Under the pieces are notes generated by a model, which ran no database searches, was not told where the DNA came from, and saw only the letters and a list, made by a program, of their open reading frames with translations. From an uncultured Planctomycetales bacterium (GTDB lineage Bacteria; Omnitrophota; Gorgyraeia; Aquiviventales; Aquiviventaceae), in assembly GCA_964373175.1 (NCBI GenBank), contig CAYJTP010000002.1, positions 40,402 through 104,401 of the forward strand: a DNA stretch of 64,000 bases. The letters are read 5' to 3'. This document shows, piece after piece, positions 1-64,000 of the stretch (positions are counted from its first letter, which is position 1; each line of letters opens with the position of its first letter). Both the position numbers and the translations under genes were made by a program.

Positions 1-20
1 CGGAGTTCGGAACAGCATTT

Positions 21-6000: not shown

Positions 6001-9000
6001 TCGTGATTGGCCCTGAAGCCATCCGCTTCCCTGAGGCGATTCGCATTGAGATCTTCAGGGAGGATCGGCTGGAGCGACACGGCGCCCATGAGCTCAAGCA
6101 CACCGTAGAAGTGAAGGATGGCCTCGGGAGGAACACCGAGACCCAGTTTGGCCCCGCGGCGTCCGGCGAAACCCTGGAGGAGAAATTCCGCAACTTCACA
6201 GCAGAGCGCAAACGCTACCAATTCTATTTCTTCGAAGGCGGGGAGGAGAATCTGGCCAAGTACGGCATCGCAGATAAGAGCTTGGTCACCGTCGTCCTCA
6301 ATGGCCAGGAGTACCTCGCGGCGTTGTCCAACGCCACAGTCCCTCTTGCCAACGGCGATATCGACTACCGGACGCAAAAGGGTGTGAGCATCGAGCCCTT
6401 AGACATCCAGACCTTGGGCAGCACCGAATGGTATGCCCAGTTACGGGCCTGGCTGATGGAACGGAAACTGCAGTTGGACGGAGTCGTCTTGTCCTACGGG
6501 GAGGTAAAGACCAATCGCGGCCATCTCAAGCTCATCCTCACGGGATTCACTAAGAGCCAACTGGATCCGACGACCCACTTTGCGAAGAAAGGCGAACTAC
6601 CCCGAGACGTGACCTTCCTGCGCTACAACGACGAGGCACTCTTGTTCTACCTGGGCATCCCAGAGGGCAGCGTGACCTACGCCTACGATCCAGAGAAGCA
6701 GTTTGACCGTGCCCAATACGGGGAGGCTGATGAGCTTGCCCGAGCCAACGGGTTCAGGATTCAAAACCACCTCATGGTGTATGACGTCCACTTCGCCAAC
6801 AAATCAGAAAACGAGGGGAAGAAGCATCTTCGAGAAATGGGCGTCCGGTTGGACGGGAGTCTCGCCTATCAGGTCGGTCGCGATCGGTTCGATCTGTGGG
6901 GTTTGGATTTCGCACGGCCTGGCCGGGAGTACGACGCGATCGTCTCCTACGACATCCGAGAACTCGCTGAGGTCACGGAGCCGCTTCCGGAAGAGACGAA
7001 CCGGATCACCGACTTAGCACACCTCCGTCTACCTGGCGCAACAGCGGGCCGGAAGATCCAGCACCTGAATATCGTGTTTAAGGATCATCCGGGCTATCTG
7101 ATCACAACCAACACGGTGGCCCAAGAAGATCGCGATTACCTCGATGCTTTCTCGGACCTCATCAACGGTCGGGAAGCCCATTACGACAAGGCCCGTCATC
7201 TCCTTGTCCTGACAGGCGAAGAGCCTACGGTGGTGCTGAACGCCAAAGCAGGCCGGGACGCCAAGCTGTTCTTCCAAGGCGAGGAAGTCATGACGAAACA
7301 AGATCAGTTCACCACCCATGTCCTGCGAGATGATGAAGGAAAGAAACTGAACTTCGTGAAGCGACTCTATGAGGAAAATGTCAAGCGCAACAGCCTCTTC
7401 TCGAAGATCGTCAAAGCGCTTCCCGTCATCGGGGCACTCACGTTCTTGACATCGTTGCAGATGTATGCTGGCGAGCCCGCTGTGCCTGGAGTGGGGGCAA
7501 GCCAACCCAACCTGTGGCTCTATAGCCTTGGGGTGATTGCCGCTTATGTGTTTGTGATCTTGCCAACGTTGATCGCCGGGTTGTATTTCCTCTCGAAGGT
7601 CAACGCCTTGTTCTTGAGACTGGTCGTGAATGTGAACAAACTGATCCAGAAACCGACCAACAGACCACTGGCTCCTGGGGTGAACCCGGCTGACTATCGG
7701 ACCCCTCGGTATCACGAGGTGAAGCGCAAGGTCGGAGCTGTGAGCATCATTCCAGAGCTGATCCTCTACCTGGTGAACAAGGGAGCTGCTGACACCGAGA
7801 TTGAGCTTCAACGAGACTTCTGGAGGGCGGTGATCGATTACCAGATGAATCGCAAGCTCGGGGGGTATCGCTCCAAGAACTCGCTGCTCACCGCTCGTCC
7901 GTATGTCTTGGATATCCATGAGATCTCCAGCTTCTTGAAGCGTGCTCGTCAACAGGGGATCGATCCGATGACAGATGTCCCAGTGAACGGTCAAACACTC
8001 CAAACCGTGATCGAGTCACGGGCATGGGACGAGGCAGTGATCGACCAGGTGACCCAGGCGATTCGAGCCTTCTTGAGGGCTGGGCGACAGCAAGAGAACG
8101 CCGAACGGAAAGCCGCCAGGCTCCGCGGGAAGTTGCTTGAGGAAACCCCCTATCCGGTTGGGGCTTGGAAGTTTTCCTTCAAGATCCTCCCTCGGATGTT
8201 GAACGTCATGTTCCGGACACCCTTCCGAGGGGAAAGGACGCCGAACCTCTGGCAGGCCTCCAAGTTTTTTGGACTCATCATTGCCGAGACGATCCTGTCC
8301 GCAGTCGGGTTAAGTGCGCTGATGTTTGTCTATACCGCTCCTGAAATCTCTGCCTTTCTGCCGATGCTCTTTGGCCTCATCCCATTTACCGCGGTCGTGC
8401 TGCTCAATTTCTGGACTGTGCTGTACCTGAACTATGCAAGCCTGTTTCGGATCGTTCGGGGTCGGTTGCATCTGGATAACGTCTCCACGTGGAGCAGCGC
8501 CCAGCGCGTGTTTCGGCAGCTTCGACGCCAGTTGAAGCCTCAACTGAGAGGAATCTTTGATGTGTTCTACCGGCATGAAATTGACAACCTGCGGTTTGCG
8601 AATGATCAGCCAGGGAGAGGGCCGCTCGTCAGTGAAGACGAGCACACCGCGTTGCTCCATGCCCTTGAGGGAGGCCGGTTAATCAAGCCCCAGACCTTCG
8701 AAGCGACAGAAACCCTCAAGCGATTCCTCAACAAATGGGCAAAGGTCCAGGCAGACTTTAATGCACACCCTGAAGAAATTGAAGCGATCCTGCAAGGCGT
8801 CGAAGATAACCGGGAAGACTACCGGCTCAATGTGATGCACTCAGGCTATGGGGAACTGGTGTGGGTGCATTTCGAGCAGCTGGATGTCTTGGCTGAAGAG
8901 CCTGGAAAAAGAGAGGTGGTCACAAAGTTCCGGAAGCTCATGATGGTGCACCCCGAGGAGTGGACCCTGTTCATTCACGACCGCGTTGGCAATCAGCTGA

Positions 9001-12000
9001 CCAGACAAGACGAACAATTCCTGTCACCTCGTCGCAGAAGCCTCACCGCTGAATCGGCCGCTGCGTATCTCGCCCAACGCTTAGGACAACCGCTCGATGA
9101 TATCAAGGAGCAAATCGAGAAATGGGCCAACTGGCGGTTGGAGAACGCTGGGAAGACTATCATCGCCACGATCTTTAGCCATCTGGAAACCTATAAGGCA
9201 TGGGCAGAGGTCCTAGGGATTCCTGAGACACAGAGGGAGGCGTGGGCACGAGCCAGGGTTAAGGTGGTGGTCAAATATGACGAGTATGGACAGAATCCAG
9301 GCCGAACCGCCGACTGGGATCATGTCAATCAACGCTTTGGCAACATCCTCACCACTGCAAACCAGACGTCCTATGAAGCCAGGGAGGCGGCCATATCGGC
9401 CTGGCATCACGATGATCAGCATGCGGCAATCCTTGTGGGAGCGCCACCTGCCGAGATGAGAGGACATGGAACTAAGGTCGGGGGGTGGGCGTTGGTCATT
9501 CCCTATTTGGATAGCGACCTTGTCTATTTCTTGGATATTGGCCATCGGTTGGCATTCGATAGTGTGATGTTCACGCCGTTCATTTCCCGACAATTTGAGA
9601 CCAATCAGTCCCTGGCCATGGTGTCGCCGGTCTACTACGCGTATGAGGAAAACTACACGTCAACGAGCCGGAGCATGAGCATTGGCCATGAGGTGTGGGA
9701 CCGGGATATCCGCTCTATCAAAGACGTCATCGATAGCGAAGACGACTGGGGCAAGAAGTATGCTCGTGTGAGCGCCTTCGAAGCCGTCAACGCGTTTCTG
9801 CCAGAGTACAACTCTGAGGATACCGCTGGCGGGGTGCGGATGCTCAAGCTTGGCTACGACATCCGCCACACGGAGCTTGTGGATGTTCCGCAGTCTGTGG
9901 AAAAAGTGCACTTCTTGGGACGCTCCTTTGTGCTGCGCTTTGGCTCAACGGTCCCAGAACTCCTGCTCGGCCGTCCAGTGTGGAAGTTTCTCGGGTCACC
10001 CTTTGTCCACTGGACCGCGAAGCTTGGCACATTCATCAGCTTTAGCCACTACCTGCGCATTGCCTTGACGGCGGTGACGATGGTGAGCTTTGTCGTGTTG
10101 AATATGTTCTTCCCCTGGTCCCTCTTTACGCTGCTCCCATTTGTTCCAGTGTTTCTGACGCTCAACTTCTTGGCGAACCAGGCGGTCAATGCTCAAACCG
10201 TGTATCGGTACGAGCAGCGCTATGGGCTCCTCAAGGGTCTGGTGATGTTCTACAAGGATTTCCCGAACCTCTTCATCGATTACGTGACCTACGAGGTCGG
10301 GAACTTCCGACAATTCCTTGAGGGCCTACGCGGGTTTGGAATGTTTACATTCAGTCCAAGGATTAGCAATCTCTACCGCCATACGTTCAAAGCCCTTTGG
10401 AATGAACCGACTGTACGGACAGGGGTCAAGCTGGCGGCATTCCTCACGCCATTTATCCTGCTCATGCCGCTGCATCCAGTGAAGCTCTTGCCCAACCTTG
10501 GCTTTGTCGTGGCGGTCGTCACGTGGTTGGTGGGGCCGTTTATTCGGAATGTCCGTACGCCGTTTTCCGTCAATCCCATTCAATGGGCTAGACAATTGGC
10601 GATGGATGTGTTGCTGGTGCCTTGGGCGTTGTTGCGTGTTTTTGTAGACATAGGAAAAGACCTGAAAGAGAAAGTAAAGAAATGGCACGCAGGCCAACAG
10701 CGGTTGAACGTCATGCTGAGCGTGGCTCCACTTCTTGCCTGGCCGATGCTTCACAGGGCTATGCAAACCTCAGGTGTGACGTGGGGCGATGTGGCGTATT
10801 ACTCGTTAATGGGTATCACAGCTCTGGCAGTGCTGGGATCGATTGCCTCCGCAATTTATGAGATGAGGTACCGAACAATCTATTTTCAGCACTATGGAGA
10901 ATACGAACTAGAATTGAAAGAGAGAGCGGACTCACATCCTCTAGTGAGAATCCTCGTGGGACTTGGTGTAGCTACAGCCGTTCCTCTTTTTATGGTTGCA
11001 GTTGATGGGGTTAACCTGTCGGTCGTCATGATGATCGGCATGATACTGGCTCTCATGTTTGGAATAAGGAACCTAGATACGTCACTGGGAGTGATCTGGC
11101 AAAGTCGTCCTCTCCAGGTTAAAGAGCTGTTCAAGACAACAATGCCATTTCTCTCCGCTGAGTTCAGCGATAAGTTGCTGGAACAGTTGTGGTATGTGAC
11201 GCGACCGTATCGTGACAACAAGGCAGCTCTAGATGCGATTGCAGAAATCATTAGTTCTATGACGGAGCCTGGACGGAAACTCAAACCTGACTACTTTAAA
11301 CGGGGTGGTAAGTACTACACGACTAAATGGTGGAGCCATGGATATGGGGCCTATGAAGAGTACGAGGAGGAAGTAAGTGAAGAGGAAGCCACTCTCCCTG
11401 AGGTAGTAACCATCCCTGATGTAGCTAAAATCACAGAACTACTTAGCCATCCTAATGAACTTAACCGATTAGTGGTGGAACGTCTCAAAACAGTACAACA
11501 GTTAACTTCCAATACAGATAGCTTGAGACATCGTGGTCGCGGTGAAGCGTCTCCTGGGGCGTCTGAGACCGGGAACACGAAGCACCCTGGGAAACGACAC
11601 CAGCGATATCCTGGCAAGGTTGAGCGGGTTGGCTCTGAGGACAAGACCCAGGACGTCCATGTGACTGCGACGGTCAGTCCTGATCGGAACATCGCCTTTG
11701 AGTATCCGCCTGACGCCACGGTGCTAACCCGCTTGACGCCCGAGGAAGAACAGATGGTCCGCCAGAGTCTCCAGAACTGGCTGGCGACGCTCGAGCATGC
11801 GCCGCCCTTGCAGGCGAGGCAGATTCCGCTGTTGGTCACCGACAATCTCGATGAGGTGGCCAGACATCAGGCCGGCAGAATCGAGATCAACGCCGCCATC
11901 CTTCGTGGGCCACCTCCTGGTGGTCCCGAAACCCCCCAAGACCGCCAACTCTTCCTGCACGGTGTGATCTATCACGAAGGCTATCACTTCCTCTCCCCGC

Positions 12001-15000
12001 GCGACTCAGAAGCCCAAGTCCAGCGAGCCACCCTTGACTACTTTAAGACCAGACGAGACATCCTCGTCGCGACGCGCCGGGTTCTCGATGCGAACAATCC
12101 AAACCTCATCACCGGACAGGAGTGGCTTTCCCAGCTCGACGAGCTCGAGCGAACGCTCCAGCTTCAGGATGGTGTCTTGGTCTTCAGCTTGGAGGGAGTC
12201 CTGGTGCCCTACACCCCGCAGCGCAAAGCTCGACTGGTTGACAGTCCTGTCTATCCAGAATTCATGGCGCTCCTCCGCAACGGGTTCCGGATCGTGGTCA
12301 ATGCGGGACACAGCCTTGAGAACGTGCTCCCTCAGATTCTGGATGGCCTGCCCGAGGCTGATAAACCGCTGCTGAGGAACCTGACCATCTATTTCAACCG
12401 CGGCACGGCGAAAGTGACGTTCAGGTCCTCTGGTGAACCAATCTTCGTTGAGTCCTATGCAAAGACGCTCTCGGATACCGACATCCCTAGGCTGCACAAT
12501 ATTCTCACAGAGCGCGTCAACGAGTATTGGAACTGGGTCCTGGAGGATCGTGATCGGTTCGAGCGGATGTTCCCGCGGTTCAGGCTCACCGATCCGCCGA
12601 GTCCGCCGAGGACTGAGTATCGTACATGGCAACCCTCTGCGTCGCAAGACCAAAACATGGGATTGTACAAAATGATGTTGTACCAATGGGGGTTGAAAGC
12701 AATGCCCTCTATTCCCCACGTGACACAAATCACGATTCTCCCATTCCCGTCCATAGAACTCGAAGGCGTTCCGGGAGCGACCGATTGGAGAAAAGCGTTC
12801 TTAACGCGTCTCCTCGAGGACCTCAAGGCTCAGGCTCCGGACTTATTGGAGCGTTACGATTTTATCCCTGGCGGGATCTATTCCATTGATATCGTCCGGA
12901 AAGGGGTGGGTAAAGATACACCGCTCAAAGAGGCCACGGCAGGTGTTGATCCTGGACATGTCCTGGTGGTCGCGAACACGGATCTGCATGGAGAAGGGGA
13001 AGGGGATTTGCCCTTGGGAACCCTTTCCTATCTCCAGCCCTACTCCGTGGGGGACATCAGCGATCTCCCGAAGGGATTCCGCACAGCTGGAATGGGGCTC
13101 TTTGCGACAAAACAGCTTATGCGCGAGGTCCTCAAAAACTATGACTATGCGAAGGCCCATCCGGAGCGTCCACCAACGAATGCGATCGGCACGGTGAAAG
13201 AATTCCTCCGCAAGCGACAACAGGCGATTTATGACATGTCGTGGTCCCCGACGATTGAAGGAGCGGTCCAGCAGTTCAACGCGTGGAGGAACCAACAGGC
13301 GACCCAAGGGAAGTCACCGAGCCGGGAGGACCAAGAAGACTATGTTCGGGGACTCTTTCAGACCTATCAACTCAATCGACTGAAGGGGTCGCCCTGGACG
13401 GACCTTTACGCACGAACACTTGCAGAACGCATGCACGCACAGACAGCCATCCGCACCCTCTTAAAAGAGCTCACCGCGGTCGATAAAGCGGAGCAATTCT
13501 ATGCACTGGTCGACGCAATTGACCAGCGCATGGGACTACGGAACGAACTGAGCAGCCAAGATTTCTGGGAGTACTACAAAGCAGTCGATCCCCGTGTGAT
13601 CCTAGCCCTCCGACGCCTCAAACAGATCACCGGATACGATGAGCATCGGCTTCGGGACGAGGTGATTCGCGAGGTCGCAGCATCTGAGAGGTCTCTGGGG
13701 CATGCGTTGAGTGTGCCACGGGTTTTGGTGAGCTACGCGGGTGATCGGATGGTCTTTCCGGCGATCAAAGCAAGCCCTCACAAGCCGCATGTATCTCCGA
13801 GCCAATACATGTATGTCGGTGGCGGGGGACCGGCGGCATCGTTCCTCATCCAAGGATGGATCCATCAAGCTCGCCAACGTGGAGAGCTGGCTCCAAACGA
13901 GCACGTGACAGATGTCACACTCGATCGCACCAAGCTGGGGCCTGCGGTCATGACGGTGGCCACGATCACGACCACCTTTGATGATGGGGGAGACTCGAGG
14001 AATTTCCTGCTTGGCTTTCTCGAAACCCCTCCCTATGAGACCTACTTCCTCCCGCCGGGAGACATCTCCGTCATGCTGGGCTTTGCGACGGATGATCCTG
14101 CGAAGCTCTGGTTTCTGCACTATGCCGACAAGAAAGAAGGACGGATCAGCGGTCGTGCAATTGCTCCGATCTGGCTCAAACGCCTCAAGATGATTCATGA
14201 AAAAATTGAGAATGGCCTATTGCCCCGTCCACCGGATTGGCTGGCCTTCGTCAACGCCGCGATGACGCTGGGTGATCTGTTGGATCGCGAGCTGGTGGAG
14301 CGGAACGTGGTGCATCCATCTCGATCGGAAGCGCCTCCAGCTCAAGCACGAGGGAGGGAGCTTCTGTTCAAAGACGGCAGCAGCCAGAATTTCTTCACGG
14401 AGGCTGCTGCGGGCTTAGACACCGGGGCGCTGATCCCTGGCGATGAACACCTGATCCGCGGGTTGTTCGATCCCTCGCGCTTGGATATCGACCATCTCAA
14501 GACTCTGCTGGGCATCCGCGATGCCCACGTCTACCCGGTGAGCCCCGATGAAGCTACGCTCGTGGCCCTTGATGAACAGGGCCACACGGTGGATCAAGAC
14601 ATGCACGTGACCCTTGGGGGCCGTATCTATCCAGTCCACCCTGCCGAGGAACAGACCGGCATTAGTGACAAGGCGCATGTTGGACGAATCCACCAGGTCA
14701 TCTTTCGAAAGCGGGTACCTAAAAAAGAGGAGAAAACGAACGTCATTTCTTATTCCTATCGCCAATTGAGACCTGAAGAGATACCAAAAGCGACCAAGGA
14801 GGAACTAGAGGGTATTGCGCGAGTTCTACAGGTGATTGTCTCCGGGCTGGGGAGTTCCTTCACGAGCATTCTTCCTGACCTGATGGTCCAAGGGGTGGTG
14901 GAGGCGATCATGGAGCGGCAAGACATCCCCCGCATCTATGTCGCCAAGATCAAGAAAGACCTCGAGACCTCCCAGCTTGATGTAATCGGGAAGACCTTGC

Positions 15001-18000
15001 GGGCGATCCCGCTCCGTGAGCAAATCGCCGTGATGGAACGATCCCTCGAAGGCGCACTGGGCAAGCCGGTCCGGTTTGAGCGGCTCTTCAGCCATGTAGT
15101 CCTTCCCCGTCTTTCGCAGAAAACCATTGACCGGCTGGCTGAGCTGGACAAGCTCACGGACCTTGAGGTCGAAAAGCTGCTCGAAGGGGGACCCCAGATC
15201 AGCAAGTATGTTCGAGGAGCCCAACTCATCAGCCAGGAAGACCTCGAGTTCCTCCAATCCCGCGGGATTCAAATTGTCTGGGTTGACGAATCGGACATTG
15301 AACTGCTCGGTGAGAAGAGGCGAGATGCGTGGTATCTGGGACTCGCCTTGAAGGCGTTACAGACAAAGACACCTCTCGAAAATGAGGATCAGCTGCTCTC
15401 CGTAGCCGACAAGACGAAAATTGTCGTTGAACACTCGACAGGTCAGGTCTTCGTGGATGGGAAAGAAGTGACCAAGGCACTTGGGGACCGAAAGGTTACC
15501 GAAGCAGCTCAGGTGGTTTCTCGCCACCCGAAGGTCCGTCACTACGTCAATCAACACTTGTTGGCTGAGGGAACGCTCACGGAGATTGAAGCGTTGGTCG
15601 ACCACATGGACCAGAAACCTCCCTACTATAAGACGCAGCCCCTCCTCAGGACGATCGATGAGATTGTCGCGTCGTACAGACCTTCCCAGCAGGCTGATAT
15701 CATCACGATTGACGGCCCTGCGGGAACCGGCAAGAGCACGGTAGCGCGCAAACTCGCTAAGCGCTTGGGTTGGCGCTACCTCGATAGCGGGGCGCTGTAT
15801 CGAGCGCTCACCCTCAAGGCGTTGGAGGAAAAGATTAAGTTGGATGATGAGATAGGGCTGTCCGACCTGGCCTGGGAAACCCAGATTGAACTCTCCGGAG
15901 ATCAGGTCTTGTTGGATGGAAAGGACGTGACAAAGGCGATTCGGAGTCAACAGGTGACCAGGGCCGTCTCGCTGGTTGCGCAACATCCAGGGGTCCGGCA
16001 ATACATCACCTGGCTGCAGCGCCGCCTGGCCAGGTCGGGAAAGACGATCTTAGAGGGCCGAGATACCGGAACCGTGGTGATGCCGGGAGCGATGCATAAG
16101 GTCTATCTCGATGCGCCGCTCAACGTACGTGCCGAGCGGCGTCAACAGGAACTCGCTTCCCGAAAGATCACGTCCAGGCTCGAGAAGGTCCGTCAGGGCA
16201 TCGAGAAGCGCGATCAGCGTGATCAGGGACGCGCGATCGCGCCACTGCGTCCTGCGCCAGGGGCCCACCTCATTGACACGGATCAGATGACCAGTGACCA
16301 GGTGGTTGACCAGATTCTCGCTGGAAAAGGAGCCGCCTACGGAGCCCTCCTGATCGATGCTGATGTGACCCTGCTACGCTCGGCCGATAAGACAGAGACG
16401 TTGAGCACCAGCCCGGCCCGAGACGCCTTGCTCAAGGTGCTTCAGCAGGGGGTGCGCGTGGCGATCATGACAGGCAACAGTGCGACACAAGCCCTGGCCC
16501 GCCTGATCGAGACCCCCGCACAGGGAGAGCAGCCAGCTCTCGTCCACATCCCACCGGAACTTCGTCACCTGGTCACTGTATACGCCAACGGGGGCTTACA
16601 GAAATTCACCTTTGACCAGGCTGGCGTTCCGCACGAAGAGGAAGCGTACCGGTCGGGGAAAGAGATTCCAGCGACCGATCGACAACGGATCCTTAAATCC
16701 ATCCAGCCGCTGCTAGACTGGTATCGCAACCGCGTTCAGAGTCTGGGTGGGCGGTTTATTAACGCACAACCCGACTTCCTCCTCCAAGGCAGAACCCTTA
16801 GGATTCCTGAGATCGTTCTCGAAGGAGAAACATCGGGTGAAGGGGTGCTGAAAATTGCCCTGATGTTCCTTTCCGCTCATCGGGCCATGGAGCTGAAAGA
16901 CTCCAAAGCCCCTGAGACCTTTCCGGATCTCCGGCAGGAGTTCCTTGAGAAGCTGTTGGCCATGCTGCCAGATGACCTGAAGGGCCGCTACAGCTTTAGC
17001 GAAGGTGGTCTCAGCAGCATCGATATCAAGCGCAAGGGGCTGGATAAATTGGTGGATGTCCGAGACTACTTGACCTCAACCAACCTTGCGCCTGAAGATG
17101 CCATCTACTTCGGAGATGAAGTCTATCCGGGAGGAAACGACTACCCTGTGACGACGATTCCAGGGCTGTTGGTGATTGGAGTCAATCCCGATCAGTCGAC
17201 CGTCGCAACTCCCGCCATCCCGGGTGGCGCAGGTGTCATGGGGACCACGTGGTGGTTAGAGAACCTTGATCAGTTGATTACCTTTCATCCCACGAGGAAG
17301 AAGTTGGTCAATCACCCGATCGCGCCCACGCCGATTCAACACCTACGTCTCCAAGCACAAGGACCGTGGCGGGAGCGAGAGACGTCGGCAGGCGTCGCCC
17401 GCGAACTCCTCACCTCTGTGGATGGGGGTCGTCTCATCGCCACGACCTATTCGCTCACTGAGCACTCAGCGCGCGATCAGGAGGCGCCTCAAGTCGCAAA
17501 AGGCCCCAACCAACTTGCGAGAAATGTGCTGGTGGATGGGGTCGTATTTCCCCTGGTCAATGACCAAGGCTGGACTCTTGATACCGCGTTAGCCCAGGAC
17601 CTGACCTCAGAGCAGCAGCCGCTCCTCCATCCAGCTGAGGCGGCCAAGGGTGCTCCCGGGACACGCTTCATCCTCAATCTCCTTTACTACCTCACGGTGC
17701 GGCTGTATGAACGGTATAACCAACTCCGGAAAGATCGACCGGCCGAGCAGCTGACTCGCCAAAACTTCTATCTCGATCACTACAAACCCTTGCACGGTGA
17801 GGAACGGTTCCCCTTGTACAACAAGGGCTATGTTGGCATCGGTAAGGACGGTAAGCTCATCTTCGGCCAGCGAACGCTCCTTGGAGGCAAGCTCTGGTTC
17901 GGTTCGCGGGAGCTGTCCTGGACCGAGCGAGATATCAACCCCACTGCTTGGAGCTTAGCCGGTCATCCGGTCATCGTTTACACGCCGAGTTACGCCGATG

Positions 18001-48000: not shown

Positions 48001-51000
48001 TTGACACCCCTGACATCAACCTGACGCTTCTTGGGCTTCTCCTCACCGGGGCCGTGGTCCTCTGGTCGCTCTATCATTGGCTTGCCACGCGCTTCCATGC
48101 GCCGCCAGAAGCCGCTCCATTGAGTCGCTGGAGCGTCCCCGCCTCTGATCGATTTGCCCTCCTTAGTGGTGTGGTCAGCTTGCCGATGATGGCCACATTG
48201 CTGCCCTCCAAAGATCCTGACAGCAAGTTGGCTCGGGATGCAGAGGATTTACGTGAACAAGGCTGGACGGCTGAGCTCGTTCGGAGCGATCTGACCACGC
48301 AGCAGCTTCAGCACACCATGGACGCCATCTTGGATGGATTAGTGTTTTCCCCACATGATCGGCCGCTCGGCCTTCCGGCCTGGCTTGGTGAACAAGGGAT
48401 CGCCGACTCCTCGAGCCGCTTACCTCGAGCATGGGTCGAGATGGTCATTGGCGAGTTGCTCTGGAATTGGCAGAGGCAGCCTGCCAGTAGTCCGTCCTCA
48501 GGCGTCGCCAGACCTCTCTTGGTCGCCTACCGACGAGGCCACATCGTGAGCGAAGAGACCATCGAGCTCATCGCGCGAAACCTTGTGGAGGAGATCCCGA
48601 ACATCCGCGAGGCGGTGAGGCCTACTGAGGCTCAGCCTGTGACGGAACGCGGCCAATGGCTTCAGCGCATGATCGCCATCGTGGTGGGGATGTTGGATGG
48701 GGAGGTGGTCATTCGATCGCATGGCAAAAAGTCTCACTTCTTCCTGCCGCAAGGAGGCGTGGGCAGTTACACCCAGCTGCTCGAGGCGAGCACGTCCTTT
48801 GACTCCTATGTGACCAAGGGCACCTCCATCTCCATCAGAATCCCGACCGCCGCGTGGTCGGCAGATGCATCGGGGCGAGCGCTCAGACAGGGCAAGCGGC
48901 TCATGAGGAAGCGACGGTTTGCCGAGGCTGCCGCGGTCTTTGCCAACGTCCTGAACCGAACGCCAACGCACCTGGGTGCACTCCACTGGTTGGCGAAAGC
49001 CGAACTCATGCAAGGGCATCTTATAGCGGCTTTGGCGCGGCCGCTGTACGGAATCGCCCAGGCCATGATGAGCCGCTCGACCCTGCACACAGAAGATCAT
49101 GTGCACGAGCTTGCGAAGCTGGATGCCCAGACTGCTGATCTGGTGGATACCTACGCTCGTGTGCTCATGGCGCGACGGCATCCTGGCGAGGTGGATCGCG
49201 CTATCGCCGTCTTAACGGCGGCGGTCCAGGAGCAGCCGCACGCGTTCTTCCTGCGGATTACCCTGGCCAAGGCCTACGAAGCCAAAGCCGTCATCCCCGA
49301 CCTCCATGAAAACGAGCGACGCTTTGCCTTGAAGCAAGCCGTCGCCATCACCCAGCAAGCGCTTGCGGACTTCTCCGCGCATCCGAAAGTCCGCCTGATC
49401 GCAGCGTACGACGCCGGGCTGTTGTCCCGCCAGGGCCGCATCGAGGAGGCCATCCGCGTGCTCAGCGATGATGAGGGACGCCACGTGAAGCGGGAGTTCC
49501 ACGAGGATCAAGTCATCCGTCGGCTCTTGGACAAACTGGCGGCAAGCCGCTTGGCTGTTGGGGTGACACCGTGGGCGCTCTCGCAAGCCCCGGCGGAGCT
49601 CTTCTGGTCGGTGGTAGCACTCGGGGCGATCGGGCGCGTGGTGTTCTCGCTGCGGCGGTGGCTCGCGGAACGCTTCCACCGCGCACCGCAACCCGATACC
49701 GAGGCGCAGAAGTTGCTTGAGGAGGCGCGATCACGACATCAGAAGAGAGACTTTGCCGGCGCCGCCCACGGGTATCGGGAGTTTGGTCATCACCTCAAAG
49801 TGCGGGACGGTCTGGCGAAGACGGAACTTGAACGCGGTCATGACTTGGATGCGATCGCGCTCGCCAGAGAGACCCTCGCGTTGGAGCAGCGACTTCTCGA
49901 GACGGAGCACTATCTCGAGCGGGTGTTAGCGGCTGAGCAGATGCCGTTCACCCTGGAGGTCTTGATCGATGCGCTCATCGCGCAGAGGAACCATGCCGAA
50001 GCGCTCACGGTCGCTTCCAACGGCATTCGCGATTTTCCGGACAACCCGCGTCTTCGCGTGAAGCAGGTGAAGGTGTACTACAGTGCCAACGACTACGAGC
50101 TGGGAATCGCCATCGCGCGCGAGGCCCTTCAAGACCCCACGTTCGAGGAGAATCCGCATCTTCACGAAGTGCTCGCGGCTGGGCTGCGGCACCTCAAGCG
50201 GGCGAAGGAAGCCAAGCACGTCATGAGTTTTGATGGCCGCACCCTCAAACCGTGGCTGCGTGGCCATAAATCCGTCTATCCCACCTTTGCTGCCATCCTG
50301 GGCGCCGATGGCCACCCGTGGGAGGGGATTGACCAGTTGATGATCAATCGGCAGGTCATCAAGCGCGAGCTTCGCGACCACCCGGCTGTCTACCCGACCC
50401 TGGCAACCCTGTGGGGTCGCGTGGGTCAGTTTGACACGGGGATTGCGCTGCTGAGCCCGGATGGTGGCCGCACAGTCCAACCAAAACTCAGCGACCATCC
50501 GGCTTCGTGGACCGCACTCGTGGAGTTACTGGAGCATAGCGGGCGGCACGCTGACGCCCTGACCCTTGCGCGCGAAGCCAAGAAGAAGTTTCCAAGAAAT
50601 CCCGTTGTCCGTCGCACGCTGCAGCACATCGAGGCCTCCTTTTACCGCCCGGGTGGTCGGGGAAGACCAGACCTCCCGATCATCAGCGCCTGGCTGGTTG
50701 TCCTAGGGCTTGGATGGTTCCTGGACCGATTCCTGGATGTGGGGACCTCATTCTCAGAAGCTGCGGTGTTTGGAGATCTCTTCTGGCCAGCGCTGGTTCT
50801 CCTCGGGGTAGTCGCAGCGGCGTACCAGCATCGAGCGCTCAGTCCTCGAACCGCTCGTCGGCTCCGTGAGGCCATCGCCTATTTCAATCAGCAAATCAGA
50901 AACAAAGTCTTACGACTAAGACAACTCACCGAAGCGGATGTTGCCGGAAAGGCCGATGTGAGCCATACGACCATCTATTGGGCCCTCAAGATCACTGACC

Positions 51001-54000: not shown

Positions 54001-57000
54001 ATTTTGATGTGGCGATCCCACTGGCTCCCCATCAGAAGCCCTCAGAATTGTTCAACGAATCAGCCTACCAGAGGTTTGCGCAAGCCTTCGAACAGGCCCT
54101 TCGAGCCCGTGGCGTGCTCAAGCCAAACCAAAAGATGCCTGAGGTGGATTTCATGCCAGGCGTGTATGTGGAAGGAGCCGGCTACATTTACCAGATTAAC
54201 ATGAACATCCGACCCACAAAGGAGCGGCCTGAGATTGGCGAGGCATTTTCGATCAGCAAACTGGCGGTCAAGAAAGAAGGCGACGGGTTTGTGATTGAAG
54301 ATCACGTGGGCGCTATGGCCGACATCAAGGCTAAGCGCCTTCGGATTATCGCCACACCCGGACGGTTACTCACCGAAGGGATGCTGGGGAAGATGTTGGG
54401 TCGATGGGCGGATTACCGGAAGCTGGGATTTGACTTTGACCGGCCATCGAGGCAGCTGATCCAGCAGTCGGTGAACGCGCTCCGGCATACCACACCAGCA
54501 GACCAAAGCACCTTTGTGAGCTTGCTCCTCGACAACAGCCAAACGCAGCAGGATCTTCTCTTCGTGATTGACCAGTATCGATTAGACGAGGTCTTGGGGG
54601 TACGGCGAGCCTCCCTGGCAAGACGATTCAAACGGCATGAGCGCGCGTCGACGGCTTCCTCCGCGGCTCCTGATCCAGTCAAAGCCTTCGTCACACAGTA
54701 CCTGCAAGCCAACTACGGCCAGTTCAACCTGTGGGCCAACACCGAGGCCGTTGTGGATGCGGTGGTGAACCGCCTGTATCCGTCGCGGGATCCAGCAGCG
54801 ATTGAGCAAGCGCGAGAGCAGTCGGGGATTGGCGTTGCGGGAAGTGACTTTACGAGGCGCTATGATGACTATCAACACGATCAGAAACTGGAGCTGACCT
54901 ATGAGCTCATTCGAGAATTTCTTACAGGCGGAGTGGTCGTGGATGTGGGGGCTGGGAAGAATCTGTTGGCGCGGAAGCTGGCTGAAGAAATCCCAGGGAT
55001 CAAGGTGATCGGGACGGATGTCTTGGATTGGCATGAGGAATCGTCCGATCCGAGAGTCGAGTATCGAAAACAACTCACCCCTGAGCGAGTCCCTGTTGAG
55101 GATGAGAGCGCCGACGTCGTGATACTCCAAAGCGTCCTCCACCACATCACGGATGAGCATCTTGACAGTCTCTTGAAGGAGGTCCACCGAATCCTGAAGC
55201 CGGGTGGGAAGGTGCTCGTGTTAGAGAACACCTTCCCGGAGACACCCGAGGTGCTCCAGACCGTGAGGGACCAGGAAGGCTTGTCGGAGTTGAGCAAAGC
55301 CTTCCTGAGCTTAAACCCAGCGCAACAGCAAGCCTTCTTCGAATTTATGGATTGGTATGGCAACGTCTTTGTGAAGCAGCAGTCTGACATGCCCTTGTCC
55401 TTCAATTACAAGTCGATCGAAGCCTGGAAAGCACTGTTTGACCAGCATGGATTGGTGACGCGCACGGATCGGTTCATCGGCTTTACCCCGGGCCGCTTCC
55501 ACTGGCTGGCCACCGGCCTCTTCGTGTTTGAAAAAGTGTCCAGCGAGCCTCCTATCTCATCCATCCTGAAGCGCCATCCGTACTTGAATGAAACGCAACT
55601 GAAGCGTTTCGCGCAAGGCGAAGCCGGGTTTGCGGTCACCCGGAGACTGAGATGGACTTTGGAGAAGCTGGATCAGTTTCTGACCGGTTTGGAGCAGGTG
55701 AGCGGGATCCCCTTGGACAAGGCAGTACAACTCGTTGTGGAACCCGCTGAGATGTATCTGATCAAGCAGGTTCGCGATGAGCGGGCAGGCCAATATCTGA
55801 TCAACCTTGGCAATTCCATGTATCCTCCAGATGTTGTCATCCAAGCGGCTGGGTACGTAGGGACTCATGAAGGCCATCACTACCTTGACGAGCTTAATAT
55901 GGTTGACGCTTCTGGTCTTGCAGAAATGGGGGGTTCTGGTGGCACGACTCGCCGAGGCTCAATCTTGGAGCAGTTTGATCGGATGGTAAGCGACGCGGCT
56001 CGAATGAATCCGATGATGCGTGGGCTAGCAGGTCGTCCAGATCTATTGTGGATGGTGGAAGAGCTCAGCGTTGATAGTGATACGGCTAACACACTCGGTG
56101 CTCGCGTCGTCAAGAACTATCTCCCCCTTGCGGAAGCTCGATTGGCTTATCAGGAACGTCAAGCAGAGAGTCCTCGCGGAGTTGTTCCTGGTCTTGCGGA
56201 GCTCGTCCGGTATGAAACCGTCGCACGGGAATATGCATGGATCGAAGGGGTCGATGGGGCATCCCGCGAACGTCTCAAGCGCGTGGAGGAGGGGTACGCC
56301 AAGTTAGCCAAGAAGGCCAAAGACTACTCGGAGGCCAAATACAAGTTCTTCCTCGGTGTGTTCACAAGCATCTACCGGATGACGAGTTTGCTCAAACCAC
56401 GTGGTGGGCGGTGGCCGAAGCGGCAGCCGTGGTATGACCGCCTGGAAGCGCGCTACGGGTGGTTCGTGGGACAGGTGCTGGCGCCAGCGCTCAGAGAGTC
56501 CGGATTCTTTGTCGGTGGCGGGAGCTTGCTACTCAGTTGGGCCTTTGGGATTCCGCTTGAGCTGAGGCCTCCAACCGTGGCACTGCTAGCTGGATTCCAA
56601 ATCCTGTGGCACCTCCGCCATCTACCGGGTGCCGAAGGCAAGACCTTGGCTCAGAAACTCGCCGCGGCGTTCTCCGCTGAGAAACTCCTCATCACCGGCC
56701 TGACGGTCGCGCTTCCCAGCCTCCTGCTGCTAGATCCCAGCAGCCCATTCCATCCGATCGGCGTCGGCTTCGTGGCACTCATCCTCGGCGTTGCGTCCTT
56801 ACCTCACGCCTTCATCAACCTCGTCACACCTATCCAAGATGGTCGTGTGGTAGGTGTCCGCGACGCGGGATCTGATACCGTCGGCAGGCAGGCGGATGGG
56901 TCTGGTCGCACTTCGCAGGACTCACCGTTGACCATCGTGGAGATGGTGTACGCTGACCTAACCAACACAGGAGGCTTGGAAAGCTACTTGCGGGAGCTTC

Positions 57001-60000
57001 ATCGCGAGCTCCTCACCCACCCAGGGATTCGAATCCATGCGCTGTATCCGGTGCAGGCCGCGCCAAGGACGTTTGAGGAACGCGCTGACAATGGGAGCAC
57101 GCTCGTTCATCACCAGTTTGTGAGACAACGTCCTTGGGTGAAGGTTTCGTGGCGCTCACCGTGGGGCTCCCTTCAGCAGAGTGCGGAGATCTTCCGCAAC
57201 CTCCGTCAGATCATTCGGCAAGAGCAGGTTGGCGTCCTGCATCTCCATACGCCGTTCTATTTCCCCGCGCATCTGGCGTTTTGGTTGGCGGGCGTGTGGT
57301 ATCGCATCCCCCGTGTGGTGACCTCGCACCAGACACACGCAGGGGGCTCGAGATGGTTCTTGCGCACCATCCACCAGCTTGGTGCCAAGGTGCTTCCTCT
57401 TGGCGCGGCGGAAGTCACCGGGGTGAGCGACGCGGCGGCCCGCAGCCTGAAGCGCAAGGCCTCTATCATCGGCAGCGGGATTGACACGCACTTCTTCACC
57501 CCGCAACACGGCCGGGGCGATGCGTTTCGGCAGCGTGAGGGGCTCTCAGCAGAGGTGCCACTGATCGTTTATCCGGCTCGGATCGATCCTGAAAAGGGCC
57601 AGCGGGATCTTTTGGATCTGGCCGAGGCGCTTCGGGCCAACGGCCTCAAGGCTCAGGTCGTCATGATGGGACCAGTCGCTGATCCCTCCTACGTTCAGCT
57701 GCTCAGCGACGACATCATCGCGCGGGACCTGTCAGAGATCGTCCACATCTTGCCCGCTGGGACTCCTGAAGAGGTGCGCGACGGCTACGCGGCTGCCACC
57801 GCGGTGGTGTTTCCTACCTATTCGGAGGCGTTGGGCCTTGTGGCGTTGGAAGCCAGCGCGATGGAAAAACCGGTTGTGGCCTACGCGACAGAAGGCGCGC
57901 GGGAAGCGGTGAAGGATGGCGAGACCGGCTACCTGGTCCCGACCGGCGATGTCGAGGCGCTTAGCCGTCACGTGATTCAACTCTTACAGGATGAGCCACT
58001 TCGTCAACAGGTGGGTCGTGCGGGTCGGGCTTTTGTGGAAGCCCGCTATTCGCTTGAGCAGTTAGCCAATCGACATCTTGCGCTGTACCGACGTGTGGCC
58101 GGCCGCGACGCGGACGCGGTATCTGATACCGTTACTGAACTGACGTCGCAAGCGATTCGCGCGGGTCTTGAGCGGCTCATTCGGGAAGGGAAGGGACTAC
58201 TTGTTGCCAAACCTCAGAAGGGCCCAATTACACAGTGCTACCTGGACTGGGGAGGGACGTTGAGCAATCTGACGCCGGAAGAACGGCGCGCGGCGCTTGA
58301 GCTGTTTCGCGCGCGCGGGATTGAGGTCAACATTCTCACCACGGCCAGCCCCGAGGCGATCGCCAGGCAGCTTGAAGCGGAAGGCAACCTGCCCTTCTTG
58401 CGCTCCATCATTCACGCCATGGGCAGCTCCTCAGGGAAGGTCCACGTCGCCCGCTATCAGGACTCAACCGGCCAAGACACTCCCATCGTCCTGGTCCACT
58501 CGCCTACGACCAAGGCCGGCTACTTGAATTCGCTCCCTGGACAGGGCCGCGTCCTGTTTGTCGATGATCAGGCGACGCATTTTTACATCACCTCAGGACA
58601 GGTCATCCGCGTCGGCGTGATCGGCAAGGGCGTCACGAGGTTAAATGACCTGCTCGGCGAGGACACGGAGTTGGCGGAGTATTACCTGGCGTCCCTCAGC
58701 GACCGTTCCTCCCTTGATGAGTTGCTCACCGCGGTATCTGATGCCGTATTGAGACCAGAGACCAGCCCGCCCCCCCGGCCCGACGCCGGCGACAGCCGGG
58801 GCGGGCGGCGGATGCTTTCGGCGGGCCGGGGAGACCAGCCCGCCCCGGCGGATGCTTTCGGCGGGCCGGGGAGACCAGAGACTCGAGTGGGCATGACTGA
58901 CAACGAGGTCATGAACGGATCGGTGAGTTACTCCGACAATCGCTTGCACAGGGCTCTTGAGCGGCGGGCCGACAAGCTCGCGCGGCTCTTTGGCAATCTC
59001 GAGTACCAGCTCATCGAAGACCTCAACCCAATCACGATGGATCATCGGCTGCCGCGCGAGTTTGCGCGGGTGAAGCTGCCGCTCTTGGCGATGCTCGTGG
59101 CCGACCACCTCATACCGAGCCACCGGACGTCACCGAAAGAGACGCTGCGTGGAGAACTGCGCGAATTCATGATGCCCGATGGGGTGACGCTGCGCGGCCA
59201 GTGGTTCAAAGTTGAAGGAGATGGCCCTGCCCCCGTGGTCGTGTTCATCCCGCCCTGGGGGATGTCGAGCAGCCAGTACGAGTCGCTCGTCGACACCTAT
59301 CGCCAAGAGGCCAACGTCCATGTGCTGCTGCTCAACCTGCGCGGGCAGGGCTTGAGTGAGGGGGAACTCACGACGCATGGCGCGGAGGACGTCGATGACG
59401 TGCAGCGCGTGCTGCAGATGCTGCGCGCCAGCCAGGAAGTCAGCACCCAGCCGATCCTCCTCCATGGCACGTCGCTTGGCGCGCTCGTCTCTCTGCGGCT
59501 TAAGACCCTGTTTCCTGAGCTCATCCAAGGCGTCTTGGCTGAATCGTGCCCGCCCATCCAGGCGCACGCCATTCAGCGGTTCTTGCAAACACAACTGCAA
59601 GACCGCTACGGCAAGGTCTTGCAACAGCTCTATCCCGAGGTCGCACGCCAGGATCCTGATTTCTCGAACTTGGCGAGCGAGACCGTACCGCTCCTTGAGC
59701 GGGTGTTAAGCCATCGCCTCGGGCGCTCCATTCACCTCATGCGGCCCATCGATGACCTCAAGACGGCGCAGGGGCCGATCACCTTCCTGTACGGTCGCGG
59801 TGATCACGTGATCCCGGCGAATGAGCAGTTGGACATAGCTCGTGCGGTGAAAGAGCGCCTCGATGCTGGTGAGGGCATCCAACTCTATCGGCTCGACGGC
59901 GGCCACCTGGCGATGAGCAACGATCCGCAGTACGCCACGGTGATCTCATCCGTTGTCCGTGAGGTCATGGTTCAGGCTTCGTCCAATGTCTTCGAGCAGA

Positions 60001-63113: not shown

Positions 63114-63169
63114 GGGGTCAGACCCTGTGCGGGAATTTTGTCAGTTTTCGTGCGAAGGGTCTGACCCTG
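63114..63169. repeat. REP-like palindromic element ~50 nt after the giant ORF stop
   Basis: The arms gggtcagaccc (63115-63125) and gggtctgaccc (63158-63168) form a stem of about 12 bp with a ~30-nt loop. No U-tract follows. It is the same family as 36423-36480, in the opposite orientation. Confidence 0.75.
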
Positions 63170-63253
63170 AGCACGCTCACGGCAGGGGAACAGGGAAAGA
63201 GGGGACTGTCAAGAGTCTTCCAGGGCTCTCTTAGTACAAGATAAAAAAAGCAC

Positions 63254-63282
63254 TTGACAAGCTTTTTGAAAGATATTATTAT
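63254..63282 (+). promoter_or_regulatory. Sigma70-like promoter for the downstream gene
   Basis: TTGACA (63254-63259), a 17-nt spacer, then TATTAT (63277-63282), within an AT-rich patch. Confidence 0.55.
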
Positions 63283-63360: not shown

Positions 63361-64000
63361 ATGGGGAAGTCGAAGACAGGACGGCTTGGCATCTGGGCTG
63401 TCGTGTTCTTCTGCAGCGTGTTCCAGATCAGCCTAGCGGGTTCTAAAGTCGAGGCGGCTCAGACGTCCCAGGGTCTTCTGGACGCTTCCGATCTCGCCAT
63501 CCCCGAAGATCTTGGTTACGTGGTCGAAACTCATCGGCCAACCCCTTCCACCTCGTCCCATCCTGCCCTTGTTATCCACATCCAAGAAGCGCACACCAAC
63601 TACGAAGGCCAGCAGCACCTCGCGGGGATTCTCGAGCATCTCATCAAGCAGTACGGGCTTCGACTGATCCTCGTGGAAGGGGGGCAGGGGGATGTGGGCC
63701 TGTCCTACCTGCGCAGCTACGGTCCCCCAGAGACTCGCAAACAGGTCGCTGGCAAATACCTGAAAGCCGGCATCCTGAGCGGGGAGGAGTACTTGGATAT
63801 GGTCTCCGACTATCCGCTCATTCTCTGGGGGGTGGAGCAGCAGGATCTCTACCAGCAAAACGTCGAGGCGTTCCTGAAAGCCGAGGAAGTCCGGGATTCC
63901 CTGAAGCCCCTAGTCGCTTCGGTGAGGGAGGCGATCGAGCTCGTCAAACCCAAGGTGCAGGACCCCGCCCTGCAGGAGCTGGACACCAAGGGCCAGGCGT
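63361..64000 (+). CDS. Secreted hypothetical protein (3'-truncated by the window edge)
   Basis: The ATG at 63361 is preceded by AAGAGG 9 nt upstream. My hand translation is stop-free to nt 64000. The N-terminal 'MGKSKTGRLGIWAVVFFCSVFQISLAGSKVEAAQ' looks like a Sec signal peptide. This ORF is absent from the ORF track, presumably because no stop falls within the window. Confidence 0.65.
   Translation, partial: MGKSKTGRLGIWAVVFFCSVFQISLAGSKVEAAQTSQGLLDASDLAIPEDLGYVVETHRPTPSTSSHPALVIHIQEAHTNYEGQQHLAGILEHLIKQYGLRLILVEGGQGDVGLSYLRSYGPPETRKQVAGKYLKAGILSGEEYLDMVSDYPLILWGVEQQDLYQQNVEAFLKAEEVRDSLKPLVASVREAIELVKPKVQDPALQELDTKGQA

Follow-up and report, generated by a model that had tools for sequence, protein, structure and literature searches.

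Can a single gene account for a reading frame that stays open for more than 63 kb, and what kind of protein would it encode? We addressed this question in a 64,000-nucleotide (nt) stretch of contig CAYJTP010000002.1 (assembly GCA_964373175.1, forward-strand positions 40,402 to 104,401), hereafter called the window. Its giant open reading frame (ORF) is a genuine single gene, truncated at the 5' end, for a protein of at least 21,020 amino acids (aa). With moderate confidence, we consider the product to be a membrane-anchored multi-enzyme giant of the kind described in Omnitrophota as Archaeovorins or under the heading 'multi-enzyme metabolic cluster', with sugar and glycan modules that would face the cytoplasm. 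Giant multi-enzyme membrane proteins of the Omnitrophota type are abundant in metagenomes and functionally unexplained with respect to the unity of the chain, the side of the membrane and the product. The present gene is no new category, and neither its existence nor its domain content will surprise specialists. It does offer three handles: the best-conserved block without Pfam matches ("dark"), which resembles glycosyltransferase family 2 (GT2) and points to glycan synthesis and export and not to degradation alone; a near-complete purge of cysteine; and an internal lipobox together with an in-frame insertion resembling a repetitive extragenic palindromic (REP) element, which bear on processing and on gene growth.

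A single open reading frame of at least 21,020 codons

Frame +3 is free of stops between nt 3 and nt 63062, a run of 21,020 sense codons that is closed by a TAG at 63063-63065. The original prediction, made from the sequence alone, had described a single ORF of more than 63 kb with at least 21,014 codons, and our count agrees with it. It had also described the other frames as chopped into short ORFs; we found 724, 873, 706, 921 and 305 stops in these five frames, and the longest open stretch among them was 984 nt. Given their stop frequencies, the chance of 21,020 codons without a stop is 10^-131 to 10^-315. Stop-codon reassignment was set aside as irrelevant, since frame +3 holds no stop of any kind.

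The GC content at codon positions 1, 2 and 3 was about 0.65, 0.42 and 0.67 in every 3-kb slice of the ORF, and position 2 had the smallest value in each of 139 overlapping 900-nt segments, so that the whole frame looks coding. Coding periodicity was already present in the 711 nt that precede the first ATG (0.61, 0.38 and 0.76 at the three positions). Since the frame also runs open into the window edge, the 5' end of the gene is missing and its true start lies upstream, as had been expected of a gene longer than the window. Base composition was even along the window (52-62% GC, 58% overall), Tandem Repeats Finder (TRF) detected no DNA tandem repeats in it, and the longest direct DNA repeat was 269 nt at 71% identity. 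In the absence of tandem or long near-identical repeats, nothing points to a collapsed or duplicated assembly join. A search against Rfam returned no RNA family match anywhere in the window. The ORF is predicted to be expressed as one chain.

Relatives in Candidatus Omnitrophota genomes

The word-index search for homologues becomes saturated at 8,000 candidates, so that its empty results for long queries are uninformative on orphan status: a 2,200-aa query that included the 265-bit Cmk domain gave no matches, and a 1,500-aa query likewise gave none. An exhaustive HMMER search with aa 4801-6000 returned 21,959 matches, and nearly all of the best 150 were ordinary Cmk proteins. Among these best 150 of 21,959, the only multi-block matches were MEW6009527.1 (3,860 aa) and MCK4859124.1 (4,533 aa). 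The records label the two as partial proteins of metagenome-assembled genomes (MAGs) assigned to Candidatus Omnitrophota, on contigs of 11.6 and 13.6 kb, which upholds the earlier claim of a resemblance to Omnitrophota giant proteins. MEW6009527.1 aligned to aa 2279-3528 of the chain (E 1e-78; 24.8% identity over 1384 aa). Further matches of this protein fell on the CofD and ROK blocks and on aa 5753-6041. A third relative, a Joint Genome Institute (JGI) fragment (P0151) found with a short query from the dark block, was 38% identical over 634 aa.

The deposited record of MEW6009527.1 is annotated merely as 'ROK family protein, partial', and its start is an internal Met upstream of which similarity to the giant ORF continues. 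In JBFMEB010000038.1 (Ca. Omnitrophota MAG234), one frame is open at both ends across the full 11,629 nt. A frame open at both ends and homology that runs past the annotated Met together demonstrate that MEW6009527.1 is a fragment of a giant gene.

Domain content of the giant chain

Domains were assigned by tiled Pfam and NCBIfam scans and by PDB sequence searches over the translation of the giant ORF. About 25 recognisable modules from about 20 distinct families were recovered, all in frame +3 (Table 1); together with the GT2-like block described below, they cover about 30% of the chain. In-frame homology had been read from about 9 to about 60 kb, and we measured it from nt 6837 (the block shared with the Omnitrophota fragment) to nt 59927 (the alpha/beta-hydrolase). 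Methyltransferases dependent on S-adenosylmethionine (SAM) were the most frequent family, with about seven copies, one HemK-like and six others of class I.

Several catalytic motifs are intact, including the Cmk P-loop, the EX7E of the GT4 glycosyltransferase and the Lys and Asp of the transaldolase-family domain (TAL), and this supports real modules in a giant chain. The Cmk module was approximately 50% identical to ordinary Cmk proteins of 225 aa. The TAL module retains both the Schiff-base Lys (IKIPAT) and the Asp but carries Gln at the position of the catalytic Glu (IQVSPE vs LEVSPE), as fructose-6-phosphate aldolases do. Compared with transaldolases of solved structure, it also contains insertions.

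There are also signs that the chain grew by local duplication followed by decay. A partial duplicate of Cmk without the P-loop stands directly upstream of the complete module, and aa 5467-5682 have a degenerate HAD-like duplicate at aa 4078-4304. The five helix-turn-helix (HTH) units are closest to the N-termini of IS630/IS481 transposases and sit between transmembrane (TM) segments; might they tether DNA? The repeat of about 80 aa at aa 2-195 had no family match and probably continues upstream of the window.

The tiled Pfam scans of the chain returned no KS, AT, ACP, PCP, C, A or TE domain and no Ig, cadherin, RTX, TSP3 or dockerin array, and self-comparison revealed few local duplications only; the original prediction had likewise seen neither megasynthase motifs nor long Ig, cadherin or RTX arrays. 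No SecA family match was obtained at E <= 0.01-0.05 over all 21,020 aa, and such a domain could be located upstream. The same scans of the visible 21,020 aa found no glycoside hydrolase, lytic transglycosylase, peptidase, lectin or adhesin repeat. The last 1000 aa or so hold no recognisable domain, and PDB sequence searches of the dark regions gave no matches.

Table 1. Coordinates of the features in the window (nt positions of the window; residues of the giant chain are given as aa).
Feature	Position (nt)	Strand	Evidence and remarks
Giant ORF	3..63065	+	21,020 sense codons + TAG; open at 5' window edge
Tandem repeat of ~80 aa (aa 2-114 vs 82-195)	6..587	+	Self-comparison; 32% identity
Pfam-dark block containing TM segments (aa 2279-3528)	6837..10586	+	Homology to MEW6009527.1 (P0001) and JGI fragment P0151
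GT2-type (GT-A, BcsA-like) glycosyltransferase-like core (aa 3156-3301)	9468..9905	+	Profile-profile comparison
Cluster of 7-8 TM helices (aa 3353-3688)	10059..11066	+	Directly after the GT2-like core
Block aa 4042-5106	12126..15320	+	MCK4859124.1 (P0053), 23% over 1134 aa, E 6e-75; includes HAD-like duplicate and CofD/YvcK-like domain
CofD/YvcK-like domain (UDP-GlcNAc-binding family)	14487..14978	+	Pfam, PDB sequence search
Partial Cmk duplicate (aa 5109-5197)	15327..15593	+	Self-comparison; 43% identical to aa 5264-5352 (15792-16058)
(d)CMP kinase (Cmk)	15696..16325	+	P-loop GPAGTGKST intact; TIGR00017 equivalog, 249 vs cut-off 135.55 bits
HAD-IIB (Cof/PMM-like) hydrolase	16347..17192	+	Pfam/NCBIfam
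Conserved block (aa 5753-6041), then NAGPA phosphodiester-glycosidase (aa 6097-6236)	17259..18710	+	Conserved block 37% identical to MEW6009527.1
ROK-family sugar kinase	19227..20183	+	33% identical to MEW6009527.1 over 345 aa
2H phosphoesterase (2'-5' RNA ligase/LigT-like)	20469..20876	+	Below Pfam cut-off
HemK/PrmC-like SAM methyltransferase	22860..23459	+	
Class I SAM methyltransferase	28362..28751	+	Pfam
HATPase_c/HATPase_c_2 (histidine-kinase or anti-sigma-type ATPase)	29697..30086	+	
Class I SAM methyltransferase	30318..30671	+	Motif I DWGCGNG
Response-regulator receiver domain 1	31014..31367	+	Weak, 25.7 bits, below cut-off
Response-regulator receiver domain 2	33594..33884	+	56.9 bits
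Class I SAM methyltransferase	35013..35312	+	Pfam
REP-like palindromic element GGGTCAGACCC-N31-GGGTCTGACCC, in-frame copy	36423..36481	.	Linker aa ~12141-12160, before the HTH block
Five tandem HTH units of ~67 aa (HTH_23/HTH_29; aa 12377-12704)	37131..38114	+	44-55% mutually identical
TM cluster of ~7 helices	38511..39566	+	Duplicated TM motif, aa 12808-12842 vs 13051-13085
Acyl-CoA dehydrogenase (ACAD), N- and C-terminal domains	40332..41573	+	
Transaldolase/FSA-family domain (TAL; aa 14265-14647)	42795..43943	+	
Internal lipoprotein-signal-like segment (aa 14922-14941)	44766..44825	+	Lipobox LALVVAA-C (VLANPLVFLTTSLALVVAA-C), Cys14941
TPR repeats	45087..45755	+	
TPR-rich region with interspersed TM hairpins	47220..50618	+	Internal duplication, aa 15740-15899 vs 16310-16467, 51% identity
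Class I SAM methyltransferase (Methyltransf_11)	54891..55271	+	50.8 bits
GT4 glycosyltransferase (Glyco_transf_4 + Glycos_transf_1)	56970..58103	+	118 bits; EX7E EALGLVALE intact
Alpha/beta-hydrolase (Hydrolase_4/S33-like)	59208..59927	+	
C-terminal cluster of four TM helices	60090..60545	+	One more helix at aa 20844
Strong hairpin, 59-nt palindrome	63114..63172	+	dG -36.7 kcal/mol, z -5.0; 49 nt past the stop
Sigma-70-like promoter match TTGACA-17-TATTAT	63254..63282	+	11/12; precedes the downstream gene
Downstream gene, frame +1, cut by window end	63361..64000	+	213 aa; signal-peptide-like N-terminus

A GT2-like core in the conserved dark block

Neither a profile search against the PDB nor permissive Pfam scans of its members gave a match for the conserved block, and an HMM-to-sequence search of the block against BcsA, PgaC and OpgH was not significant, its top local match being the TED motif of BcsA. 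The motifs of the core suggested a GT2 synthase, and E. coli BcsA, PgaC and OpgH served as comparators. In a profile-profile comparison, HHalign aligned the core with the GT2 profile over 135 columns with a probability of 91.7% (P 7.9e-7, score 55) and placed aa 3156-3301 onto residues 338-482 of BcsA, with K-x-G, D-x-(D/H), (T/S)ED and G-Y...P-Q in register. Among 60 column-shuffled controls, the maximum score was 28.6 and the maximum probability 6.2%, and a reversed profile scored 11. In the core itself the motifs read K-x-G, D-[IV]-G-H replacing DxD, SED, G-Y and P-Q.

The JGI fragment is approximately 80% identical to the chain across aa ~3190-3305, despite a GC content of 42% vs 58%. Such identity across the core, held in the face of a 16-point difference in GC, indicates purifying selection and a functional core. 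Taken together, these results make it reasonably supported that aa 3156-3301 and the seven or eight TM helices that come directly after form a GT2-like membrane glycosyltransferase module with putative catalysis.

Membrane segments and topology

A crude Kyte-Doolittle predictor gave 35-46 TM candidates depending on the threshold, which amounts to 3-4% of residues and roughly bears out the dozens of TM segments that had been predicted. Sixteen consecutive pairs of candidates lie 30 residues or fewer apart, most of them with gaps of 1-15 residues. The fraction of Lys and Arg was 0.142 in the outer flanks of the paired helices vs 0.085 in the loops (protein average 0.119), the pattern to be expected for helical hairpins that have both large flanks in the cytoplasm. 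Domains dependent on ATP, SAM, flavin adenine dinucleotide (FAD) or nucleotide sugars require a cytoplasmic location, as do receivers and HTH units. A TopPred-style dynamic program based on the positive-inside rule, run with no domain constraints, placed aa 4829-10455 (CofD to the first receiver) inside in six of six parameter sets, and the predicted topology would thus put this part of the chain in the cytoplasm. For Archaeovorins it has been reported that predictors disagree on topology (West-Roberts et al. 2023, bioRxiv 10.1101/2023.11.21.568195).

Certain TM segments recur. The hairpin motif GGLEGHLLAGLGVVLSVIGFGGLL is present three times, at nt 51415-51488, 52267-52340 and 53704-53777 (aa ~17138-17168, 17422-17451 and ~17901-17925), with 66-89% DNA identity, and a second TM motif is duplicated at nt 38453 and 39182. 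Membrane anchors seem to have been copied as cassettes.

Cysteine depletion, an internal lipobox and a REP-like element

Cysteine makes up 9 of the 21,020 residues (0.04%), at aa 7070, 7073, 8875, 8878, 9502, 10128, 14941, 19412 and 19849; four of the nine form two CxxC pairs (ALCDNCLK and QLCLSCIR). The Cmk module contains none, vs a mean of 1.24 in 119 free-standing Cmk proteins, and the cysteine content of the two Omnitrophota relatives is 0.40-0.47%. Avoidance of near-stop codons was considered as a cause and rejected, because TGG and TAY are not depleted. Cys14941, one of the nine, belongs to a perfect lipobox that ends a hydrophobic segment, and a TPR block comes next. This lipoprotein-signal-like segment may be left over from a lipoprotein gene that was fused into the ORF, or it may serve as an internal site of processing.

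The REP-like pattern matched twice in the window, vs no match in 100 shuffles, with half-sites at 27811 and 35569. The in-frame copy is inverted and has an 83% match relative to the copy after the stop codon at 63114-63172; the element had no match in Rfam. Its position suggests that the coding sequence tolerates small elements that are mobile or repeated. The main texts of West-Roberts et al. (2023) and Nielsen and Lui (2026, bioRxiv 10.64898/2026.06.07.730766) mention neither GT2-like modules nor lipoboxes nor in-frame REP-like insertions nor cysteine content.

The visible downstream flank is 935 nt long. The hairpin beyond the stop codon is likely a terminator or a REP-like element; it has no T-tract, and for this reason a terminator scan did not call it. 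The product of the downstream gene had no Pfam or NCBIfam family match.

Discussion

In the reading that we prefer, some 35-45 hydrophobic helices, many in tight hairpins, would carry the chain into the cytoplasmic membrane during translation, and the modules stapled to the membrane in this way would face the cytoplasm. Sugar and nucleotide-sugar chemistry and glycan assembly would form its centre, with a GT2-like synthase and its helix bundle, a GT4 glycosyltransferase, a ROK kinase, HAD-IIB sugar-phosphatases, a YvcK/CofD-like binder of UDP-sugars, a (d)CMP kinase, a phosphodiester glycosidase and a transaldolase or aldolase. These would be accompanied by seven SAM methyltransferases, a signalling set (the HATPase, two receivers and five HTH units), TPR scaffolds and an alpha/beta-hydrolase. 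The product would likely be a surface glycan or 'coat', or else the modules may process sugars at cell-cell contacts. In a very small cell, fusion in a single chain would fix in what stoichiometry the modules are present and how they are ordered in space. The repertoire of modules is what suggests such a glycan factory.

Several observations weigh against this reading. About 70% of the chain is without an assigned fold, and the tiled Pfam scans saw no SecA_DEAD, HEAT or NUDIX domain in the part of the protein that lies in the window. Extreme depletion of cysteine is more typical of extracytoplasmic proteins. Past the lone helix at aa 11165 the predicted topology depends on the parameters, and some settings put the receiver, HTH, ACAD and TAL domains outside. 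In the GT2-like core, all three members carry D-[IV]-G-H in place of DxD, the putative QxxRW is L-R-F, and an AlphaFold2 model of aa 2990-3700 from a three-sequence alignment had a mean pLDDT of 35. As to origin, the three relatives are 23-38% identical overall and have a GC content of 39-42% vs 58% here, and the nearest neighbours of the Cmk module (50-52% identity) are scattered across phyla (Bacillota, Armatimonadota and others). No marker gene is present within the window.

An artefact is very improbable. A misassembly, over-polishing, a chimeric join or a decaying pseudogene would have to be reconciled with several hundred expected stops that neither chance nor polishing can remove (P below 10^-131), with periodicity that is uniform in 139 of 139 segments, with homogeneous GC and no tandem or long identical repeats, and with domains and catalytic motifs that are intact and all in one frame; moreover, independent contigs hold homologous frames that are open end to end. 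The origin is probably Omnitrophota, but the same kind of gene could belong to another phylum, in the Planctomycetes-Verrucomicrobia-Chlamydiae (PVC) group or unrelated to it, and the Omnitrophota label would then be a by-product of database content. We regard this as a minority possibility, somewhat unlikely on balance: the difference in GC and the low identity to the three relatives speak for it, as do the lack of a marker gene in the window and the reports of proteins that reach 10,000 aa or more in Elusimicrobiota, Verrucomicrobiota, Planctomycetota and others, but the only multi-block matches among the best 150 of 21,959 are both annotated as Omnitrophota, and the domain repertoire is a close match to the Omnitrophota catalogue.

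The remaining alternatives concern what becomes of the chain. It could be a polyprotein, translated as one chain and then cut by signal peptidases or dedicated peptidases into separate enzymes, lipoproteins and membrane pieces, in which case the gene would be a means of co-expressing an operon's worth of proteins. Residues 14922-14941 have exactly the look of a lipoprotein signal peptide, the lipobox there holds one of the nine cysteines and TPR repeats follow; an S33-type alpha/beta-hydrolase is present, the modules are complete enzymes that are free-standing elsewhere, and cleavage by N-terminal C39/S8 peptidases has been posed as an open question (West-Roberts et al. 2023). We nevertheless judge it unlikely, as the window contains no protease of known processing role, no recurrent cleavage motif was identified in it, the place where C39/S8 domains would sit is outside it, and the single lipobox, out of 46 hydrophobic segments, was noticed post hoc. 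A similarly doubtful proposal, made for Archaeovorins, has most of the chain outside the cell, binding and degrading the cell wall of a host or prey. The near-absence of cysteine (none in the Cmk module), as in many exported proteins, would suit it, as would the NAGPA phosphodiester glycosidase and the TPR repeats, and the literature reads this protein class in such a way, with secretion systems as neighbours. The tiled Pfam scans, however, found no glycoside hydrolase, lytic transglycosylase, peptidase, dockerin, lectin or adhesin repeat, most modules need ATP, SAM, FAD, nucleotide sugars, phosphotransfer partners or DNA, and the topology heuristic puts aa 4829-10455 inside; the N-terminus with any signal peptide lies outside the window, which shows about 1 kb of flank. 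More speculative still, and in our view improbable, is a polyprotein that doubles as a membrane 'assembly line'. Flavivirus polyproteins are processed by host signal peptidases, and by analogy the chain might be threaded through the membrane and processed at segments resembling signal peptides or lipoboxes (for example aa 14922-14941), with the near-total removal of cysteine as an adaptation for folding on both the reducing and the oxidising side. Each translation event would then deliver a fixed set, made up of enzymes, lipoproteins and a GT2-type synthase, to both faces of the membrane.

Comparison with known systems

Non-ribosomal peptide and polyketide synthases (NRPS/PKS) are likewise very long multi-module enzymes in a single ORF, but the giant chain consists of unrelated stand-alone enzyme families, is membrane-anchored and has no iterated set of modules. 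A megasynthase was excluded by domain content, with no KS, AT, ACP, PCP, C, A or TE domain in the tiled Pfam scans. Giant repeat adhesins (RTX, Bap and Ig-like proteins, and the large ORFs of Chlorobium chlorochromatii) share with it the extreme length, the very low cysteine content and a link to symbiotic lifestyles in the literature; unlike them, it has no Ig, cadherin, RTX, TSP3 or dockerin arrays and is essentially non-repetitive at the protein and DNA level. A repeat adhesin or RTX protein was excluded on these grounds, with neither repeat-array Pfam matches nor TRF tandem repeats.

The GT2-like module can be set beside the processive GT2 synthases BcsA, PgaC and OpgH. Its core aligns with their ordered motifs K-x-G, D-x-(D/H), (T/S)ED and G-(Y/W)...P-Q, and, as in BcsA, a bundle of TM helices comes after the catalytic core. 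Unlike these enzymes, the second Asp of DxD is replaced by Gly-His and QxxRW by L-R-F, the match was missed by single-sequence and HMM-to-sequence searches, and the module is embedded in a giant chain with no PilZ or partner subunits seen.

Giant proteins of Omnitrophota have been reported repeatedly. ORFs of more than 20 kb occur in most Velamenicoccia and Omnitrophia genomes, and peptides were detected for an ORF of 39,678 aa with 42 helices from V. archaeovorus (Seymour et al. 2023, PMC10066038). Archaeovorins, defined by a gene of more than 90 kb, a protein of more than 30,000 aa and, in most, a divergent SecA_DEAD domain, carry glycosyltransferase, methyltransferase, TPR/HEAT, NUDIX, peptidase, glycolytic-enzyme and SecA_DEAD domains and many TM helices; a C39/S8 peptidase lies at the N-terminus near a signal peptide, and genes for type II secretion or pili are nearby (West-Roberts et al. 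2023). The chain described here is alike in being encoded by one giant ORF, in its dozens of TM helices, in its glycosyltransferase, methyltransferase, TPR and central-carbon enzyme modules, and in domains that have diverged from their free-standing counterparts. It differs from the type, the 39,678-aa LiM protein of Velamenicoccus archaeovorus, in that no SecA_DEAD, HEAT, NUDIX, glycoside hydrolase or lytic transglycosylase is found in the visible 21,020 aa, and in that its Cmk module, about 50% identical to ordinary Cmk, has not diverged. Of the Archaeovorin domain set, GT4, GT2-like, methyltransferase, TPR and S33-like hydrolase domains are present, while glycoside hydrolase, NUDIX and HEAT were not found; as to size, the 63 kb is a lower bound because the ORF runs off the window.

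The closest counterpart is the 'multi-enzyme metabolic cluster' class from a corpus in which 3,650 proteins reach at least 10,000 aa, 916 of them from Omnitrophota; PF08241, PF02518, HAD, PF00534, PF00072, PF00480 and TPR recur in this class, 46% of the 916 long proteins are TM-only and were read as membrane-anchored cytoplasmic domains, and 80% of the sequence clusters are singletons (Nielsen and Lui 2026). Against the length of at least 10,000 aa used there, the present ORF has at least 21,020 aa in one frame; about 20 families are present with none dominating, including all six named families or close clan members; and 3-4% of residues fall in helices by the crude hydropathy predictor, compared with about 2% in the class. 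Methyltransf_11, HATPase_c, HAD, Glycos_transf_1, Response_reg, ROK and TPR domains and scattered TM helices are shared, as is a sequence that is mostly unique, with distant relatives only (about 70% is dark here). On the other side, the GT5 starch-synthase, PGM, radical-SAM, GNAT and HEAT domains common in the catalogue were not seen here, Cmk, CofD, NAGPA, ACAD and TAL are absent from the main text of Nielsen and Lui (2026), and the 58% GC is far above that of the relatives found, with the length again a lower bound. The original prediction had held that whole cytoplasmic enzymes are not explained by the literature on such proteins; this did not stand as worded, since West-Roberts et al. (2023) and Nielsen and Lui (2026) describe multi-enzyme giants by the hundreds, and the same domain set and TM-only class place this enzyme content within the literature, which reports it without a mechanistic explanation. 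Except for SecA_DEAD, HEAT, NUDIX and glycoside hydrolase domains, unseen in the visible part, the giant ORF fits the published description of such giants feature by feature, and its phylum would probably be theirs, the Omnitrophota.

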